Below, piece after piece: positions 2,418 through 48,841 of a stretch of DNA of 64,000 nt (within the stretch, counting starts at the first letter, position 1; each line of letters begins with the position of its first letter). Source of the stretch: Shigella phage SH7. The stretch lies in the sequence record KX828711. One strand, 5' to 3'. The notes beneath the pieces were generated by a model, which worked only from the letters and a program-made list of their open reading frames with translations, ran no database searches and was not told the origin of the DNA. The position numbers were made by a program, and so were the translations under genes.

Positions 2418-2447
2418 ATTATACCACATCCTTGTGGTAAAGTAAAC
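2418..2447 (-). promoter_or_regulatory. early sigma70-type promoter (-35 TTTACT, 17 nt, -10 TATAAT)
   Basis: minus-strand reading GTTTACTTTACCACAAGGATGTGGTATAAT upstream of 2392 start. Confidence 0.6.
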
Positions 2448-4267
2448 TATTGGCTCATCCATTCTTTACGAAGGTCAGCGTTATCTCCCATGAGCATTTC
2501 AAAAAGCTCTTTCCAGTTCTCAGGAAGTTTAACAACATCATATACTGGGTTTTGAATCATCTCACGATATTCAGATTTTTCCAAAGAGCCAAGTCCCTTA
2601 ATATAACGGATGCTATGTTTAGGTAGAGCATCTTTGGCACTCTCATATTCAGCGACTGTATAAAACCATTCTTGTTTTTTACCGACCTGAGCGATGATTA
2701 CAGGAGTTTTGACGAAACGAATTCTTCCTTGTTCAAACAATTCTGGCCAATTACTAAAAAATCCGAGCAGAGAAGGATAAATGCTTCCTAGACCATCATG
2801 GTCAGCATCGGTCATAATAGCGATATTATGATAATTCAAGTTTTCAGCTTTTTCACCAAGAACTAATCCAGTGATTGCGCAAATATCAAACAGTTCTTTG
2901 TTTTTAAGCATATCAGCATATGACATACCCCAACTGTTGAGAACTTTACCGCGCAATGGATAACCACCATGAAGTTCTTTATCACGAACATCAATAAGAT
3001 ATCCGATAGCCGAATCACCCTCGGTTAAGAACAATGTAGTATCAGCATCTTTACCACAAAGATTCGCTTTAATATGTTTATGAACCTTAGCTTTAGAAGC
3101 CTTTTTAGCTGCTTTAGTTTCTGCCGCTTTTTCTGCCGCCAATTTACGAGCCAAGGCAGCTTCAATAATTGGCATCAAAATAGCTTCATTATTTAGAATA
3201 GCACGTGAAATCTTTTTAGCATCAAGCTGAATATGACTACGGATTTCACCAAATGGAGAAGTCAAACGCTCTTTAGTTTGAGAATCAAATCGCATGTTTT
3301 TCATATCACGGACAAACATAACGATAGTCAAACATTCTTTGACACGCGCTTTAGTTACATCAATTTTGAACTTACGTTTGATTTGTGGAATAAGGTCTTC
3401 ACAAATATCATCCATAACGCAGTCAATGTGATGGCCACCATTCTTAGTATGAATGTTATTCACATAAGTTAATTGACGAAATCCATCCGGTGAACGACCA
3501 ACCGCAATAGAACAATTTTCTTGTTCTTGAACAATAGCATGTTCATCATACTGTCGTGCATATTTCTTAAAATTGCCCTGAACCTTTTTACCATTAAAGG
3601 TAAATTGAATATCAGGATAAACAACAGCAAGTGTCTGGAGACGATCTAGTGTAATGTCAAGATAAACTTGGGACAGCTCATTAGTTTCAAATGACATAAA
3701 ATCAGGAATGAAAGTAACACGAGTTCCTTTCCATTTTCCAGGAATATCTTCCCATGATTTATTTTCCATGCCGTTTGAACAACGAACTACAATATTATTT
3801 TGACCGTCGCCAGTTTCACCAACAAACATCACAGAAAAAATGTTTGTCAAACTAGAACCAACACCATTCATACCGCCGGTGACACGTTCTTTATCATCAC
3901 CGAAGTTACCACCTGCTTTTGGAATAGTCCATGCAGCAACAGGACCAGGAATTTCTTCACCGGTAGGTGTTTTAACCATCGCCTGTGGAATACCACGACC
4001 GTTATCTTCAACTGTTACTTGATTGTTTTTAATAGTAACATTAATTTTATTTGCGAATTTAAACTTAGTACGAATACCTTCATCTACTGAGTTATCGATA
4101 ATTTCATCAATAAGCTTAACAAGACCAGGTACATACTGAACACTTTCCCATTTACCAAACAGAAAGCGCTCATGCATTTCATTAGCTGAAGAGCCAATAT
4201 ACATGCCGCTACGCTTTTTGATATGTTCAATATCGCTCAGAATTTTAATTTCATTCTTAATCATCAC
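2447..4267 (-). CDS. 39: DNA topoisomerase II large (ATPase) subunit, unsplit 606-aa form
   Basis: GyrB-like ATPase motifs (EIIDNSVDE, EDNGRGIP, GGMNGVGSS) and TOPRIM-like C-terminus in one ORF. Confidence 0.85.
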   Translation of the reverse strand: MMIKNEIKILSDIEHIKKRSGMYIGSSANEMHERFLFGKWESVQYVPGLVKLIDEIIDNSVDEGIRTKFKFANKINVTIKNNQVTVEDNGRGIPQAMVKTPTGEEIPGPVAAWTIPKAGGNFGDDKERVTGGMNGVGSSLTNIFSVMFVGETGDGQNNIVVRCSNGMENKSWEDIPGKWKGTRVTFIPDFMSFETNELSQVYLDITLDRLQTLAVVYPDIQFTFNGKKVQGNFKKYARQYDEHAIVQEQENCSIAVGRSPDGFRQLTYVNNIHTKNGGHHIDCVMDDICEDLIPQIKRKFKIDVTKARVKECLTIVMFVRDMKNMRFDSQTKERLTSPFGEIRSHIQLDAKKISRAILNNEAILMPIIEAALARKLAAEKAAETKAAKKASKAKVHKHIKANLCGKDADTTLFLTEGDSAIGYLIDVRDKELHGGYPLRGKVLNSWGMSYADMLKNKELFDICAITGLVLGEKAENLNYHNIAIMTDADHDGLGSIYPSLLGFFSNWPELFEQGRIRFVKTPVIIAQVGKKQEWFYTVAEYESAKDALPKHSIRYIKGLGSLEKSEYREMIQNPVYDVVKLPENWKELFEMLMGDNADLRKEWMSQ

Positions 4268-4291
4268 TTATCCTCGTTTGGTTTCGGGAAT

Positions 4292-4316
4292 ATTATACTC
4301 CGGTAATCATAAAGCT
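4292..4316 (-). promoter_or_regulatory. middle-type promoter (MotA-like box AGCTTTA, 12 nt, TATAAT) for gene 39
   Basis: minus strand ttAGCTTTAtgattaccggagTATAAT directly after the hairpin. Confidence 0.45.
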
Positions 4317-4334
4317 AAAGGCCCGAAGGCCTTT
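4317..4334 (-). terminator. GC-rich hairpin with UUCG tetraloop (RNA stability/terminator element)
   Basis: aaaggcc-cgaa-ggccttt; minus strand loop UUCG; immediately 3' of the 4334..4594 gene. Confidence 0.6.
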
Positions 4335-4594
4335 TATTTAAAACGGATAGTCGAATCCTTGAAGAATAGACCAGAACACACAGTTCCTTCTACTTTCTGC
4401 CCAGTAGGTCCAACAGCACGAAATCCAGTGTGTTGGAAATCATTTTCAGAGCAACCGAACCAATTGTATCCAGTGATTTCAATATTAGTAAACCCACTTG
4501 AAGACAAAACTTTGGTTGCATTATCAGCATCAGTACATCCTACTAAAGATACTGCTAATACTAATGCTGCGATAGAACGATTAATATATTTCAT
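4334..4594 (-). CDS. predicted lipoprotein (39.1 position)
   Basis: 86-aa ORF; N-terminal signal with lipobox LVGC. Confidence 0.5.
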   Translation of the reverse strand: MKYINRSIAALVLAVSLVGCTDADNATKVLSSSGFTNIEITGYNWFGCSENDFQHTGFRAVGPTGQKVEGTVCSGLFFKDSTIRFK

Positions 4595-4596
4595 AA

Positions 4597-4773
4597 TTAC
4601 CCTTTAAGCAAGTCGTAAAATCCGCCATTCACATGCTTAGGAGCGGAAACTAACCGAATAGCAATCCGATGACAATCAGGACATACATCAGTATCCCTTT
4701 CAGAAATTTTCTTGATTTTTTCGTATTCTTTTGCACAGTCTTTGGATTGGCATTTATAATCATAAAGCGGCAT
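4597..4773 (-). CDS. 58-aa zinc-ribbon protein (FmdB-like MPLYDYKC...CPDC), absent from ORF track (<60 aa)
   Basis: own translation MPLYDYKCQSKDCAKEYEKIKKISERDTDVCPDCHRIAIRLVSAPKHVNGGFYDLLKG; two CxxC pairs; fills the gap between flanking genes. Confidence 0.5.
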   Translation of the reverse strand: MPLYDYKCQSKDCAKEYEKIKKISERDTDVCPDCHRIAIRLVSAPKHVNGGFYDLLKG

Positions 4774-4775
4774 AA

Positions 4776-5195
4776 TTATTCCTTAAAGTGAGCTTTCAAC
4801 ATCTGATACAATGACCATGCCTGTTCATTATTTTCAATAGTAACTTTCATGACAGGAAATTCTGTGAAATCTTCTATTTGTTCTTGCTCTTCCTGCTCTT
4901 GTTCTTCAGCAGCCTGATATGGATTTTCCACTTCATCAAAGAACCCAGCTTCGTTAGTAGAGAGCCAGATAAAGTTTTCGTCAAGGATAACACCATGTGT
5001 TGCATATCCAAATGTGCCAGTAGATGTCACAATTTTAGTAGGACGACCAAGATGGTCAACATCTAAAATTTTAAAAGGTTCCATACCTAAACGTCGTGCG
5101 TAGATTCCGTTATCAGTATGGTCTTTAATAAAATTTTCTTGAGCTTGTTTATTTTTAAATTGATACCATTTATTAACTTCAAATTTAATAGCCAT
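4776..5195 (-). CDS. acidic hypothetical protein (goF position)
   Basis: 139-aa ORF; [13 protein letters not shown] acidic tract; position and size similar to T4 goF as recalled. Confidence 0.45.
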
Positions 5196-5410
5196 TAATA
5201 AATTTCCTTCCAGTAAGTTGTGCCATCTTCAGTAATTTCACGAAATACACCGTAAATTGCTTGTTTATCACCAACCTTTTCATACACATAAACCGAAGTC
5301 AAGTGAGTAAACTTAATGGTGTGTTCCTTTTGAACTACTACCAAATCTGGATCGAATAATACATCTTCAAATTCGTCATTAGTACAATTCTGAACAATTT
5401 TGTGTTTCAT
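5195..5410 (-). CDS. 71-aa protein (cef position)
   Basis: 71-aa ORF; size and position match T4 cef as recalled. Confidence 0.4.
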
Positions 5411-5423
5411 TACAATTTCCTCA

Positions 5424-5705
5424 TTAATTGAACAGTGGAGCGATGCGTTTCAGAAGAGTAGCAGCACCTTTGGCAAATTTTACATCATGAAAAACAGTTT
5501 CTTCTTCCGTTACAACACGAGCTTTAATGTTTTCACAATCCCAATTTTTGCGAACAATCTTCAAAAGCTGCAGTAAATCTTTGCATTCAGCAATATCGAT
5601 AACACATCCACGAGAATCTTCCATTATCGCACGATAACCGTAAGCCATACCATAATCGTTGAAAGATTGTTCGATGATAATTAAGTTTTCCATTTTATTC
5701 TCCAA
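5424..5705 (-). CDS. hypothetical protein
   Basis: 93-aa ORF. Confidence 0.4.
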   Translation of the reverse strand: MENKMENLIIIEQSFNDYGMAYGYRAIMEDSRGCVIDIAECKDLLQLLKIVRKNWDCENIKARVVTEEETVFHDVKFAKGAATLLKRIAPLFN

Positions 5706-5717
5706 GTTGTTTTCTGT

Positions 5718-5766
5718 ATCAGTAGTTGATATTGATATAGTACCATAATCAACTACTGATGTATAT
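5718..5766 (-). promoter_or_regulatory. promoter whose -10 (TACTAT) lies in the loop of a perfect 13-bp inverted repeat (atcagtagttgat / atcaactactgat)
   Basis: inverted repeat 5718..5730 and 5748..5760 read directly; -35-like TATACA 17 nt upstream of the -10. Confidence 0.45.
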
Positions 5767-5790
5767 AGTTTTATGAAAAAATTTTAAACT

Positions 5791-6288
5791 TTATGCACAA
5801 CGAGCTTTGCTATAGTGTTTAATCCAACTTTCAGGAATGACTTTGTATGTTCCTAAAAATACCGCGTTGTACAACTTAACGCCATCTTCTACCCATTGAT
5901 CGGTAATGTATGCACACATAGCACGAGTGCGATGTTTTTGAACAACCCCTTCCTCATCTTCGGTAAATTCGAATTCATAAGGAGCAATGAACTTAATAGC
6001 CTGACCGAGCTTCCACTTAAAGTCTACACCTACATGTGAAGTATCAATCGTTTCAATTCCTTTAGCAGGAACAGCTTTCAAAAACGCAGATTCAAGAAAT
6101 TTCGCACGAACATAGCCAAACTGAGGTTTAGACTTTCCATCTTTAGGAATGATACGCACTTTTACTTCAGAATCTTCATCTTTAACGCCATGTTTAAGCT
6201 GAATGCTTACAATTTCAACCAATTTTCCTGCTGCTTTAGAACGGGATTTATCAGATACACGAGCAATTTCACCAATATTAATAATCAT
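5791..6288 (-). CDS. MotB-position protein (165 aa)
   Basis: ORF; C-terminal ITDQWVEDGVKLYNAVF shared with the next gene. Confidence 0.45.
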   Translation of the reverse strand: MIINIGEIARVSDKSRSKAAGKLVEIVSIQLKHGVKDEDSEVKVRIIPKDGKSKPQFGYVRAKFLESAFLKAVPAKGIETIDTSHVGVDFKWKLGQAIKFIAPYEFEFTEDEEGVVQKHRTRAMCAYITDQWVEDGVKLYNAVFLGTYKVIPESWIKHYSKARCA

Positions 6289-6332
6289 AGTTATCTCTCA
6301 CTTGTTAAAAAGATTTTATACTCCACAGGACC

Positions 6333-6362
6333 ATTATACTCTGGTCCCAAGAGTTTGTAAAC
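6333..6362 (-). promoter_or_regulatory. early promoter (GTTTACA, 17 nt, TATAAT)
   Basis: sequence read on minus strand upstream of 6288. Confidence 0.6.
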
Positions 6363-6364
6363 TA

Positions 6365-6904
6365 TTAATTCAAAATAGCTACCACTGCACTACGAGGTAC
6401 TACGCTAAAATCACCTGCATGAACAACGTTCAGAAGTTCAACACCGTCTTCAATCCATTGGTCTGTTACCCAACCACAGACCGAAATAAATGGGGTCTTG
6501 ATAGCTACAGCACGAGTCAAAAGGTCAGTAGGATCGCATTCTTGGAAGAGGATAAGCTCTGCTTCAAAGACTATAGTTTTAATTACTTCATCATTATCTA
6601 AGCGATGTGCTCGAATCACATAAGCTTTATTCTTATCATGCCAATTACTTTTTGAAAAACTTTTAACCACAAACTCGCCTTCACCAAAAACACTGGTCAA
6701 TGCTTTATAACCCAAATTTAGTTCAGTAGTTTTAATTTCAGTTTCAACCAGTTTGTAGGTTTTGCCGATTTCAATAGCGGTAGTCATAGTAGGTTCCTTA
6801 ATTTCCAGTGGTTTAACAGGGCATACATAAGTGCTTACAACATCAAAATCAATCAGCTTAGCTACCGGATTTGGTGTGTATTCAGGATTATAATTAAATT
6901 TCAT
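6365..6904 (-). CDS. paralog of the 5791..6288 protein (179 aa)
   Basis: shared C-terminal motif VTDQWIEDGVELLNVVH. Confidence 0.45.
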   Translation of the reverse strand: MKFNYNPEYTPNPVAKLIDFDVVSTYVCPVKPLEIKEPTMTTAIEIGKTYKLVETEIKTTELNLGYKALTSVFGEGEFVVKSFSKSNWHDKNKAYVIRAHRLDNDEVIKTIVFEAELILFQECDPTDLLTRAVAIKTPFISVCGWVTDQWIEDGVELLNVVHAGDFSVVPRSAVVAILN

Positions 6905-6906
6905 AA

Positions 6907-7407
6907 TTATCTCATTTCAATAAAATCTACGAGTTCAGCATGCGATTTGCGGAACATTACTTGGTGCCCACCAATGATAACTTCATCTTCAGGAACTTCA
7001 TATATAGCAAGATAAAATCCTTTAGAAGCTAATTCTTCACGCTCTTCTCGTGTGAACCATCTCATCATATCATATTCACTAACGAAAGCAAAATGATAAA
7101 GAGCTATAAACCATCCTGGAATATGATATTCTACTCCAACATAATCTTTCTTGAACTTAGTATTAATTACTATATTAGCGTTTTTAACTAATAGTTTATC
7201 TTCGTGTGGTAAAGGAATTCTTTTATTATTATCGCTATGATGCATAAAATTAGGTCTGTCATAACCTACGTGTAATAGCCACTCTTCGCTCCATGAATCT
7301 ATTATACTCCTGTACGGCGTTATTTGAACACAAAGATTTCGACGTATTGTTATAGCATCTTCATAATCAAGAATACTAAACGATGATTCAACACGATAAA
7401 TTTTCAT
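6907..7407 (-). CDS. hypothetical protein
   Basis: 166-aa ORF. Confidence 0.4.
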   Translation of the reverse strand: MKIYRVESSFSILDYEDAITIRRNLCVQITPYRSIIDSWSEEWLLHVGYDRPNFMHHSDNNKRIPLPHEDKLLVKNANIVINTKFKKDYVGVEYHIPGWFIALYHFAFVSEYDMMRWFTREEREELASKGFYLAIYEVPEDEVIIGGHQVMFRKSHAELVDFIEMR

Positions 7408-7434
7408 TTTATTATCCTCAGTAGCTATGGTGTT

Positions 7435-7464
7435 ATAATACCATAACTAACCGAGGAAGTAAAC
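7435..7464 (-). promoter_or_regulatory. early promoter (TTTACT, 17 nt, TATTAT)
   Basis: sequence. Confidence 0.5.
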
Positions 7465-7470
7465 AACTTT

Positions 7471-8154
7471 TTATCGTTTAGTTGGAAGAGATAGAGGATC
7501 GCATTCTTCCTCTGATGGAGCGTCTTCAAGACCCATAGCATACCGCAAAGCATACTTCATCATCAGGATGTCTTTCGCACAGTCATGAATAGAATCATGC
7601 GCAACGAATCCATCTAAAGTTCCTTTTGGAAGAGGACACGTGGTCATATCACGAACAAGCAGAAGTGCTTCAATTCTGGTACGAATATCACGCTGATTCC
7701 AGAATTTACAAGGTTCTAACTTAAATGTATCAAGCTCATTCTCGGAAACGCCGTTAAGACGTTGAATATCGCGAATGAGATCGACTAAAATTGGAAAATC
7801 AAACGACATTCCACGGCACCAGCCTTGAGATTTCCAAGGATCGATATTATGTGCATTGATGTAATCATTAAATTTTGCAATACCGTCAATAGTGCTTACA
7901 TCTTCATCTGATGGTGCAATATTTTTTCGAGCTTCAGGAGATTGATTCTTCCACCATTCGATAGTGCTTTTAGTAAAAAGACGATGTCCTTTTTGGCTTT
8001 TTAAATCAAATTTGATTTTAATGCCACGTGAAACTAATTCATCAAATGTTTCAACTACTTCTGGATTAGGGTCAAAAGCAATTACAGCTAAATCAATAAC
8101 CGCTGCTTTTTCACCGCTTCCCATTGTTTCAAAATCTATAATAAAATCAAACAT
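7471..8154 (-). CDS. dexA: exonuclease A, DnaQ-like 3'-5' exonuclease
   Basis: 227 aa; N-terminal DFETMG exo motif; size and position match T4 DexA. Confidence 0.7.
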   Translation of the reverse strand: MFDFIIDFETMGSGEKAAVIDLAVIAFDPNPEVVETFDELVSRGIKIKFDLKSQKGHRLFTKSTIEWWKNQSPEARKNIAPSDEDVSTIDGIAKFNDYINAHNIDPWKSQGWCRGMSFDFPILVDLIRDIQRLNGVSENELDTFKLEPCKFWNQRDIRTRIEALLLVRDMTTCPLPKGTLDGFVAHDSIHDCAKDILMMKYALRYAMGLEDAPSEEECDPLSLPTKR

Positions 8155-18091: not shown

Positions 18092-18122
18092 TTTCTTTTC
18101 TCCGCGATTAGCTGATAGAATT

Positions 18123-18152
18123 ACTATAACACAACTCTATCAGCTTGTAAAT
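18123..18152 (-). promoter_or_regulatory. early promoter (TTTACA, 17 nt, TATAGT)
   Basis: sequence. Confidence 0.5.
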
Positions 18153-18581: not shown

Positions 18582-18610
18582 AACAATCTCCTCATTTAAC
18601 CAACAAGACT

Positions 18611-18640
18611 ACTATACCATAGTCTTGTCAGCTTGTAAAC
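18611..18640 (-). promoter_or_regulatory. early promoter (TTTACA, 17 nt, TATAGT)
   Basis: sequence. Confidence 0.55.
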
Positions 18641-24079: not shown

Positions 24080-24109
24080 ATAGTACCATGGAAGAACAGT
24101 CTTGTAAAC
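24080..24109 (-). promoter_or_regulatory. early promoter with conserved TGGTACTATACAACTATC core
   Basis: near-identical copies at 48812..48841 and 54085..54114. Confidence 0.6.
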
Positions 24110-28912: not shown

Positions 28913-28931
28913 GTTTTAGTGTAAATTATAA

Positions 28932-28945
28932 AGGGCCGAAGCCCT
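28932..28945 (-). terminator. UUCG-tetraloop hairpin 3' of gene 45
   Basis: agggc-cgaa-gccct. Confidence 0.55.
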
Positions 28946-28948
28946 CTA

Positions 28949-29635
28949 TTAAAAATCGTGGGTAGAATCAGCTTCAAGAGCTACTACATAATTCGCATGT
29001 TCACCTTCAAATTTAGCAGCACCTTGTTTACCTTTTGCCCAGAGCAGAAGTTTATAATTTCCTGGTTGCATTTTCATATTTGCCATATTGATAATGAAAT
29101 TAAATGTATTTTCACCATCATAATCACCAAGAGTCAAAGAATATTTAACACGGGTTAAAGCAGAATCTTCTACTTTATTAAAACCGTTGATTACGATTTT
29201 ACCTTCTTTTACCGTGATAGCAATTGTATCAATTTGCAGACCACGAGATACACGCAACAGTTGTTGAAGGTCTTCAGCTTTAATTTCAGTAACAACAGAT
29301 GCTACCGGGAATGGAATTGGTTTATTAGGAGCAACTACTGTACTCGGATCGGCTGCTGGCCAAAAAATTGTTGAGCGGGCATCAGCAATTTTAATATTTC
29401 CATCTTCTGACTGGGAAATTTCTGCATCATCATTAACCAGAGACAGAATACCGAGAAAACCGTTCAAATCGTAAATTGCTACATCAAAATCAATAACGTC
29501 AGAAATATTTGCTTCCGCATAAGTTGTACCATTAACTGCACGAGTCATAATAAATTGACCTGATTTAAGCATAATACCGGAGTTAATAGTAGCGAAATTT
29601 TTAAGCAGAGCAGTAGTATCTTTAGACAGTTTCAT
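28949..29635 (-). CDS. 45: sliding clamp
   Basis: 228 aa; recognised. Confidence 0.9.
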   Translation of the reverse strand: MKLSKDTTALLKNFATINSGIMLKSGQFIMTRAVNGTTYAEANISDVIDFDVAIYDLNGFLGILSLVNDDAEISQSEDGNIKIADARSTIFWPAADPSTVVAPNKPIPFPVASVVTEIKAEDLQQLLRVSRGLQIDTIAITVKEGKIVINGFNKVEDSALTRVKYSLTLGDYDGENTFNFIINMANMKMQPGNYKLLLWAKGKQGAAKFEGEHANYVVALEADSTHDF

Positions 29636-45833: not shown

Positions 45834-45863
45834 ATTATACCACATCCTTGTGGCAAAGTAAAC
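45834..45863 (-). promoter_or_regulatory. early promoter (TTTACT, 17 nt, TATAAT)
   Basis: sequence. Confidence 0.55.
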
Positions 45864-48783: not shown

Positions 48784-48811
48784 TTTGTGTTCCTCCGTAG
48801 TTGATAGTTGT

Positions 48812-48841
48812 ATAGTACCACAGAGGAACGGTCTTGTAAAC
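48812..48841 (-). promoter_or_regulatory. early promoter, conserved TGGTACTATACAACTATCAACTA core
   Basis: near-identical to copy at 24080..24109. Confidence 0.6.

Follow-up and report, generated by a model that had tools for sequence, protein, structure and literature searches.

A stem-loop enclosing the -10 element of a predicted early promoter between motB and cef of Shigella phage SH7

Downstream of motB, Shigella phage SH7 carries a conspicuous perfect inverted repeat whose two 13-bp arms embrace the -10 element of a predicted early promoter, and the question that this locus raises is whether the repeat works as DNA, for example as an operator, or as a hairpin in RNA. The stretch of DNA analysed, called the window here, is a 64-kb segment of this phage (KX828711), and all positions follow the numbering of the window. 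It is of the T4-like, Tequatrovirus type, and its part 5300-6400 is 98.6% identical to phage W143 and has matches in 554 phage records. The genes around the repeat lie on the minus strand, with motB as the upstream cistron and an open reading frame (ORF) of 89 amino acids (aa) as the downstream gene. With a probability of roughly 0.6, the element is a cassette of the promoter-early stem-loop (PeSL) type, combining an early promoter with a stem-loop, in which the selected feature is the hairpin of the sense RNA, acting on read-through RNA.

The two 13-mers, ATCAGTAGTTGAT (5718-5730) and ATCAACTACTGAT (5748-5760), are perfect reverse complements with a spacer of 17 nt, exactly as a first-pass annotation of this DNA had described them. 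A repeat finder lets the repeat grow inward to arms of 20 nt that are 85% complementary around a 3-nt loop, and RNA and DNA folds place within the spacer an inner stem of 5 bp (5741-5745 with 5733-5737), which has one G.U pair and the 3-nt loop CUA. The hairpin begins 31 nt past the motB stop codon (TAA, 5791-5793), and its 13-bp stem is A/U-rich, with four G-C pairs among the 13. On the sense strand the intergenic region reads TAA (motB stop), AGTTTAAAATTTTTTCATAAAAC, TATATACA, the 5' arm TCAGTAGTTGAT, TATGG, TACTAT, ATCAAT, the 3' arm ATCAACTACTGAT, ACAGAAAACAACTT, GGAG, AATAAA and ATG. This is the longest perfect inverted repeat of the whole window for spacers of 3-40 nt; an inverted repeat of at least 13 bp with such a spacer also turns up in about 12% of the sequences simulated from the window by a first-order Markov model, so the length of the repeat, which is only mildly unusual when taken alone, is weak evidence. 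That the repeat goes beyond chance is seen from its intergenic position, its RNA fold, the identity of a 59-nt core among relatives and the low diversity of the stem-loop. The RNA folds at -23.6 kcal/mol (z = -4.3), a stability reached by none of 200 shuffled sequences, and across calculations the values range from -20.2 to -23.6 kcal/mol with z between -4.3 and -5.6. For the hairpin in DNA the fold energy is -11.5 kcal/mol (z = -5.1).

The enclosed promoter is built of a UP-like tract, a -35 element TATACA, a spacer of 17 nt, a TGn motif (5743-5745) and the -10 element TACTAT (5737-5742), and T4 early promoters have this UP/-35/TGn/-10 build (PMC2988021). The TACTAT that had been recognised inside the repeat spacer is a minus-strand sequence, and the minus_10_signal deposited for T4 msp1 aligns with it. 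TATACA shares its last base with the 5' arm, which begins there, and aligns column for column with the GTTTACA of its paralogues, that of msp1 with its deposited minus_35_signal among them. Homology to these annotated paralogues suggests that a sigma-70 early promoter is active here, and its spacing predicts a start 7 nt past the -10, at the A of position 5730, with which the 3' arm begins. Transcription would then open with the 13 bases of the 3' arm, the 5' arm would serve as promoter spacer, and the promoter would drive the 89-aa ORF, followed by cef and goF. The promoter had earlier been assigned to a gene at 5424..5705; the promoter itself stands, and the gene start is revised, since an ATG at 5693 (5691-5693), which has a Shine-Dalgarno (SD) sequence GGAG at 5700-5703, is the likely start and the TTG at 5705 is less likely.

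Because the 5' arm lies upstream of the predicted start (~5730), the RNA of the promoter itself would be unable to form the hairpin, which only RNA derived from motB could form. RNA initiated at about 5730 would have an unstructured leader, and RNA from the motB promoter, about 600 nt upstream, would contain both arms and fold into a hairpin of 13 + 5 bp at about -20 kcal/mol. On read-through RNA this hairpin may attenuate or pause read-through, may form a barrier to 3'-exonucleases, or may do both. Such a barrier would define and stabilise the 3' end of the motB mRNA, for example after cleavage by RegB, and the embedded promoter would then restart expression of the downstream genes. The sequence GGAGAATAAAA (5703-5693), which starts 14 nt past the stem, fits the strong RegB cleavage consensus GG*AGRAYARAA (PMC3014915) at 11 of 11 positions, and after predicted cleavage there, about 16 nt would separate the hairpin from the new 3' end.

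The relatives of this element were taken from an annotated phage collection; a pattern scan of IMG/VR (GGTACTAT-N20-34-CTTGGAGAAT) gives 21 matches, nearly all of them by chance, and gathering of loci through the 89-aa ORF gives four. The first-pass annotation had named the absence of the repeat from close relatives as an observation that would count against it; the repeat is present in them, and its 59-nt core is 100% identical in 429 of the 496 phage records that carry the core. In 18 orthologous loci, picked on purpose for their divergence, sequences differ pairwise by 0.008 on average over the 43-nt stem-loop, by 0 over the -35, by 0.18 over the 3' coding region of motB and by 0.28 past the ATG. 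The TATACA of the -35 is invariant in these loci, and Dhakavirus JS98 has the identical TATACA. The commonest variant of the element, C to T, lies just 3' of the stem and outside the pairing, and another variant outside the pairing, in the loop, turns TACTAT into TATTAT.

Stability and substitutions separate RNA from DNA as the level at which this structure works. The G.U pairs of the stems make sense RNA more stable than antisense RNA in all six -10-enclosing stems of the window (this one and five described below), the difference being 2.2-8.8 kcal/mol. Among relatives, five of five stem substitutions exchange a Watson-Crick pair for G.U when read on the sense strand: A to G in SholemSchwarzbard and C to U in ZCEC14 for this hairpin, U/C opposite G and C to U opposite G for the hairpin of PmotB, and A/G opposite U for that of P8.1. 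On the antisense RNA, or in a palindrome of DNA, each of the five would be an A.C mismatch, and the probability that five of five are G.U-compatible is about 0.03 if transitions are neutral. This evidence favours a sense-strand RNA structure over an operator. Together with the covariation of orthologues described below, it supports an RNA hairpin in transcripts that read through from upstream, which had been the second of the two readings offered earlier.

The first of them was an operator, in which a dimeric or tetrameric DNA-binding protein of phage or host would occupy the two 13-bp half-sites and repress or time the promoter through its -10, and it is now highly improbable. Although the symmetry is perfect and centred on the -10, and the arms are invariant in hundreds of Tequatrovirus genomes, the short half-sites at a distance of one to two helical turns and the conserved sequence expected of a dimeric operator are not found here: half-sites of 13 bp with centres 30 bp apart are unlike those of typical dimer operators, five other promoters of the window have the same geometry with unrelated arms, and the orthologues of other genera have both arms swapped for different complementary sequences. 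The variants of SholemSchwarzbard (A to G) and ZCEC14 (C to T) break the symmetry of the DNA and keep the pairing of the RNA, and phage SP18 retains the hairpin after loss of the -10. The 13-mer does not recur either, since the search for it that had been proposed, run over the whole window, gives no second copy of the 5'-arm sequence with fewer than two mismatches. Of the proteins that had been named as candidates, MotB binds DNA without sequence specificity and RegA is an RNA binder, which also counts against an operator. In favour of an operator, a 2026 preprint notes that the palindromes of terminators can also serve as transcription-factor sites (10.64898/2026.08.19.745784).

Beyond Tequatrovirus, orthologous promoters directly upstream of cef have TGA-TACTAT and a hairpin in five genera, namely Mosigvirus (KMB38, -35 TGTACA), Marfavirus (Marfa, GTTTACA), Karamvirus (PG7, GTTTACT), Gelderlandvirus (Melville, GTTTACT) and Dhakavirus (JS98 and NC-G, TATACA / TGTACA). 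In these, the 5' arm lies in the promoter spacer, the loop is AUAC and the 3' arm starts in the last bases of the -10, and the stem sequences differ. In their ungapped alignment, three pairs occur as two or three Watson-Crick types with double compensatory changes, cells in which both sides have changed number 9 vs 2.6 expected, and none of 500 shuffles reaches the covariation score; when the register is slid, pairing falls from 78% to 37-45%. The closing pairs are G.U in most sequences. The motB-cef spacer of Gaprivervirus SP18 (637-696 of its locus) is just 46 nt long and holds a 9-bp hairpin homologous to the Dhakavirus stem (GATAGGG...CCCTATC), with a shortened loop and no recognisable -10 or -35, and on this comparison the hairpin has outlived the promoter. 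The hairpin of PmotB, GGGACCA/TGGTCCT in the window and GGGGTCA/TGACCCC in SP18, differs by two double compensatory changes. Judged from these alignments, the hairpin at the motB-cef promoter is old and selected as a structure, and Tequatrovirus has it in a remodelled form, whose arms are longer and in a different register.

Paralogous promoters bear on the origin of this version. A 106-nt segment of the locus has three to six matching places per genome and is, on the evidence of these matches, a member of a paralogous early-promoter family. From the -35 onward, the paralogue at window position 24108 reads GTTTACA AGACTGTTCTTCCATGG TACTAT ACAACTATCAACTA..., the one at 48840 reads GTTTACA AGACCGTTCCTCTGTGG TACTAT ACAACTATCAACTAC..., and T4 msp1 (GenBank L13089, with deposited -35/-10) reads GTTTACA TCCTTGTTCTTCCATGG TACTAT ACAACTATCAACTACTGATACAG...GGAGAATAAAATG. 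At the position of the 5' arm the paralogues have unrelated spacers, TCCTTGTTCTTCC or AGACTGTTCTTCC, and the 3' arm ATCAACTACTGAT is the leader of the whole family, as ATCAACTA(CTGAT) also trails the -10 in hairpin-less paralogous promoters. Nine of the 17 spacer positions depart from the paralogue consensus, and every one of these changes adds complementarity to the leader. The paralogue at 24108, whose spacer is not rewritten, has no hairpin (-5.0 kcal/mol, z = +0.9), and the fold is therefore not an automatic property of the promoter sequence.

The nine changes look like one concerted event, as would be expected if the repeat had a role at the DNA level, as a recombination or cruciform substrate in the shuffling of PeSL cassettes, or if it were a by-product, a frozen templated (strand-switch) mutation by which the spacer received the complement of the leader, kept only through conservation of the whole cassette. 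The same cassette, including the 5' untranslated region (UTR) and SD, precedes unrelated genes in T4 and in Mosigvirus, whose copies of the promoter family stand upstream of an unrelated gene; an insertion/deletion difference of an ORF lies directly downstream; PeSLs have been proposed as recombination sites (PMC2839356, PMC4122927); and the DNA hairpin is itself stable, as given above. A DNA-level role or a neutral templated mutation accounts for the origin of the repeat, but not for the strand asymmetry, the covariation or SP18. Asymmetry and G.U-only substitutions indicate RNA, the orthologous hairpin covaries across genera with closing pairs that are mostly G.U, the hairpin persists in SP18, where the promoter is lost, and the microhomology end-points of the deletion in T4 lie inside the ORF and not at the palindrome. 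A DNA-level role or a by-product is thus considered unlikely.

The window was also scanned for early-promoter-like sites, each of which was folded. The first-pass annotation had stated that no other promoter in the window has this arrangement, and this does not hold, because five more minus-strand early promoters have stems that enclose the -10 (Table 1). The arm sequences of the six stems are all different. The P8.1 element (7415-7457) lies upstream of the motB.2 homologue and has its SD, GAGGA, inside the 3' arm. In read-through RNA of the elements at 7463 and 48840 the ribosome-binding site would be sequestered, and in promoter-initiated RNA it would not be.

In T4, genes e, soc, 49 and I-TevI have promoters located in the DNA from which the 5' strand of an inhibitory RNA structure is transcribed (PMC3014915). 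If the motB-cef element followed this established principle, its hairpin and a flanking helix would hide the ribosome-binding and RegB site of the 89-aa ORF in read-through RNA, and the ORF would be translated or cleaved only on RNA of its own promoter. As in gene e, long read-through transcripts would fold and transcripts from the internal promoter, with the predicted start at 5730, would not. In the minimum free energy fold of the intergenic RNA (111 nt), UUUUUCA upstream of the hairpin and UGGAGAA at the SD pair into a 7-bp helix around it, and RNA secondary structure is known to shield GGAG from RegB (PMC3014915); this helix, however, is weak, with two G.U pairs and 13-nt internal loops, and one of its strands borders an A/T run of varying length. 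The known cases have late (or middle) promoters and a hairpin that sequesters the SD or AUG, whereas the motB-cef promoter is an early one, with an SD that falls 14 nt beyond the main stem; the sister elements at 7463 (GAGGA) and 48840 (GGAGG) do include the SD in the 3' arm. Control of translation or decay of the gene e type is rather unlikely at motB-cef, and at the sister elements with SD in the 3' arm such discrimination between transcripts is plausible.

Several points weigh against a selected hairpin that acts on read-through RNA. The 13-bp stem is nearly invariant within Tequatrovirus, so that covariation of that very stem cannot be shown, and the covariation evidence stems from orthologues of other sequence and register and from neighbouring hairpins. 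The whole cassette of about 105 nt is conserved, and conservation alone does not part hairpin function from promoter function. The strength of the promoter is uncertain because its -35 is degraded. In the accessible literature no transcript 5' or 3' ends were found for the site, on which papers on MotB, DksA, GoF/LSm and T4 omics are silent, and the labels "terminator" that GenBank records have are software predictions only. The RegB consensus is not kept in every genus that retains the hairpin. The stem tail ACAGAAAACAAC has no U-tract and a terminator scan of 4200-7500 gives no terminator-like site, and for these reasons, together with the A/U-rich stem, strong or efficient intrinsic termination is doubtful here.

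An intergenic hairpin past a stop codon, which overlaps the next promoter so that the same DNA serves RNA structure and promoter, resembles an intrinsic terminator, but the G+C-rich hairpin and U-tract of a Rho-independent terminator are not found. In the semi-synthetic design of promoter-coupled terminators described in the preprint (bioRxiv 10.64898/2026.08.19.745784), the stem-loop DNA gives the -35, and the -10 lies past the T-tract, whereas here the stem brackets the -10. A pause or attenuator site, a 3'-exonuclease barrier, or both, fits better than an intrinsic terminator and is the likeliest effect of the hairpin. Rfam covariance models give no match over 5300-6500 at E-values up to 1, and GenBank AF158101, NC_000866, M89919 and KF208315 have no regulatory features at this site.

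The class to which the element belongs is already described. PeSL stem-loops take five positions relative to the promoter, often between -35 and -10 or overlapping the -10 (PMC2839356), and are proposed to terminate or attenuate transcription that enters from upstream (Arbiol et al. 2010, PMC2839356). The tests of that original paper concerned one RB49 stem-loop, which lowered the expression of lacZ to an extent similar to that of the rrnB T1 terminator, and one PeSL promoter (PMC2839356). As in other PeSLs, a stop codon in an A/T-rich tract, a sigma-70 early promoter (by sequence), a stable stem-loop, an SD and a start codon are found here within about 100 bp, and the motif is repeated (paralogues at window 24108 and 48840), recurs before unrelated genes and stands beside an ORF insertion/deletion difference. 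Location in the spacer or overlap with the -10 is a named common subclass in phi1/RB49. The PeSL promoters of T4/PST have the consensus TTTACW-N17-TAYWAT (Comeau et al. 2014, PMC4122927); the element (TATACA-N17-TACTAT) fits its TAYWAT and its 17-nt spacer, has a TGn, and differs in a -35 with one mismatch to TTTACW. It also differs in its stem-loop, since those of T4/PST are described in the 2014 paper as "just upstream" of the promoter with the form AGNA-loop-TCNT, and here a long, perfect and A/U-rich stem, not of polyG/polyC, straddles the -10. The motB-cef element is a further member of this class, in the overlapping -10 subclass.

A conspicuous palindrome of a well-studied phage genome is hereby placed in the PeSL class, and no new kind of system is involved. 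What is added to the accessible published descriptions is the covariation of the stem-loop across at least six genera, the preference for sense RNA, the persistence of the hairpin beyond its promoter and the occurrence of six such promoters in one 64-kb window. More tentatively, and with the odds rather against it, hairpins that bracket the -10 could be more than recombination linkers and form a design rule for the early transcription units of Tevenvirinae that is ancient, general and under selection. The DNA of each promoter would also encode an RNA structure that closes the preceding unit, and read-through RNA would be marked by it (3' end stabilised, paused or translationally silenced), with promoter-initiated RNA left unmarked. 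The Tequatrovirus motB-cef element would then be a recent and unusually long rebuild, in which the complement of the leader was copied into the spacer, and SP18 would show that the RNA function is primary. If the hairpins delimit or stabilise early transcripts, they may help to explain the balance of "delayed early" read-through and promoter-proximal expression in T4, the mechanism of which is still debated (PMC2988021), and they could serve phage engineering as compact promoter-insulator parts.

Table 1. Positions in the window of the parts of the motB-cef element, of further early promoters with a stem around the -10, and of the surrounding genes.
Feature	Position	Strand	Remarks
A/T-rich tract AGTTTAAAATTTTTTCATAAAACTA	5766-5790	-	25 nt, from motB stop to -35; putatively UP-like
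-35 TATACA	5760-5765	-	4/6 to TTGACA; one change from T4-family TTTACA
5' arm, sense strand, ATCAGTAGTTGAT	5748-5760	-	fills promoter spacer; locus-specific part
Segment between arms, 17 nt	5731-5747	-	holds TGn (5743-5745), -10 TACTAT (5737-5742) and inner stem
3' arm, sense strand, ATCAACTACTGAT	5718-5730	-	predicted initial transcribed region
5' UTR, unstructured, and SD region	5693-5717	-	
PmotB	-35 start 6361, hairpin 6320-6354	-	-17.4 kcal/mol, z -3.1; ~600 bp away
T4 P8.1 (by position and sequence)	-35 start 7463, hairpin 7415-7457	-	-23.7 kcal/mol, z -7.1
Early promoter	-35 start 18151, hairpin 18110-18145	-	-18.0 kcal/mol, z -4.3
Early promoter	-35 start 18639, hairpin 18598-18633	-	-18.9 kcal/mol, z -4.4
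Early promoter	-35 start 48840, hairpin 48789-48829	-	-19.4 kcal/mol, z -5.2; SD (GGAGG) in 3' arm
gp39	2447-4267	-	followed by homologues of 39.1 and 39.2
goF	4776-5195	-	
cef	5195-5410	-	
89-aa ORF, function unknown	5424-5693	-	phrog_3720, E = 2.6e-46; downstream gene of the promoter, upstream of cef
motB, 165 aa	5791-6288	-	Pfam PF17613, E = 2.8e-99; phrog_1671; upstream cistron of the hairpin
motB paralogue (apparent, partial)	6365-6904	-	adjoins motB

The upstream gene, which had been placed at the MotB position, is confirmed as motB by its Pfam match (Table 1), and MotB has been reported as a DNA-binding protein (PMC6070864). The adjoining gene at 6365-6904 appears to encode a partial MotB paralogue: its product and that of motB have a common C-terminal MotB-like segment (TDQWIEDGV...), the match of PF17613 to it is confined to residues 141-174, and the rest corresponds to phrog_2333. 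The product of the 89-aa ORF has no match in a Pfam search. The region of this ORF is complete in about 212 phage records, and the ORF is deleted in T4, T6, PST and many others, which retain promoter, hairpin, SD and ATG; the T4 element is unchanged despite this loss. The deletion in T4 (3495-3600 of its locus) has AAAA(Y)TT microhomology at its end-points and leaves a remnant of 11 codons, out of frame, behind the conserved promoter, SD and ATG. Farther downstream, gp39 is one protein of 606 aa that corresponds to gene 39 and gene 60 fused, and the window is thus without the gene-60 split and the mobA / 60.1 insertion of T4.

From phage to phage, the A/T run that separates the motB stop from the -35 (5770-5785) differs in length, being 2 nt shorter in T4 and 6 nt longer in GiZh, and the sequence downstream of it is invariant; this variation would shift the register of any UP element. 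Another promoter that was considered lies within the A/T tract (TTTAAA ... TATATA/TATACA), and mRNA started from it would have the hairpin at its 5' end; it was rejected because its spacing is 15 or 17 nt for the window sequence and, for T4, 13 or 15 nt, and because the A/T run is of variable length. A middle promoter with a MotA box is absent from the sequence, and the T4 list has no middle promoter between 5349 and 10058; a late promoter (TATAAATA) is absent as well. The laboratory mutant T4_583L (MZ375356, locus 725-780), an engineered or evolved clone of T4, has two deletions of a TA dinucleotide inside the element, which turn TATATACA into TATACA and TACTATATC into TACTATC and shorten the regions before the -35 and just after the -10.

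Cassettes at least 85% identical to that of motB-cef in promoter, 5' UTR, SD and ATGGA are found in T4 (L13089, 186-266) and in the two loci L002 (2500-2600) and L003 (2500-2605), where they precede an unrelated gene, T4 msp1, the first ORF past the tRNA/rnaC cluster, and its Mosigvirus counterparts. Phage MC06 has the Tequatrovirus-type ATCAAT variant behind the -10, and this variant and the cassettes together suggest cassette exchange between loci and genera. Three further minus-strand early promoters of the window (2418-2446, 28925-28953 and 45834-45862) have a short hairpin wholly within the spacer between -35 and -10, for example CCACAaggaTGTGG straight before TATAAT, and represent another PeSL subclass. 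The cef promoter of Jiaodavirus has the same CCACAAGGATGTGG motif as these spacer hairpins.

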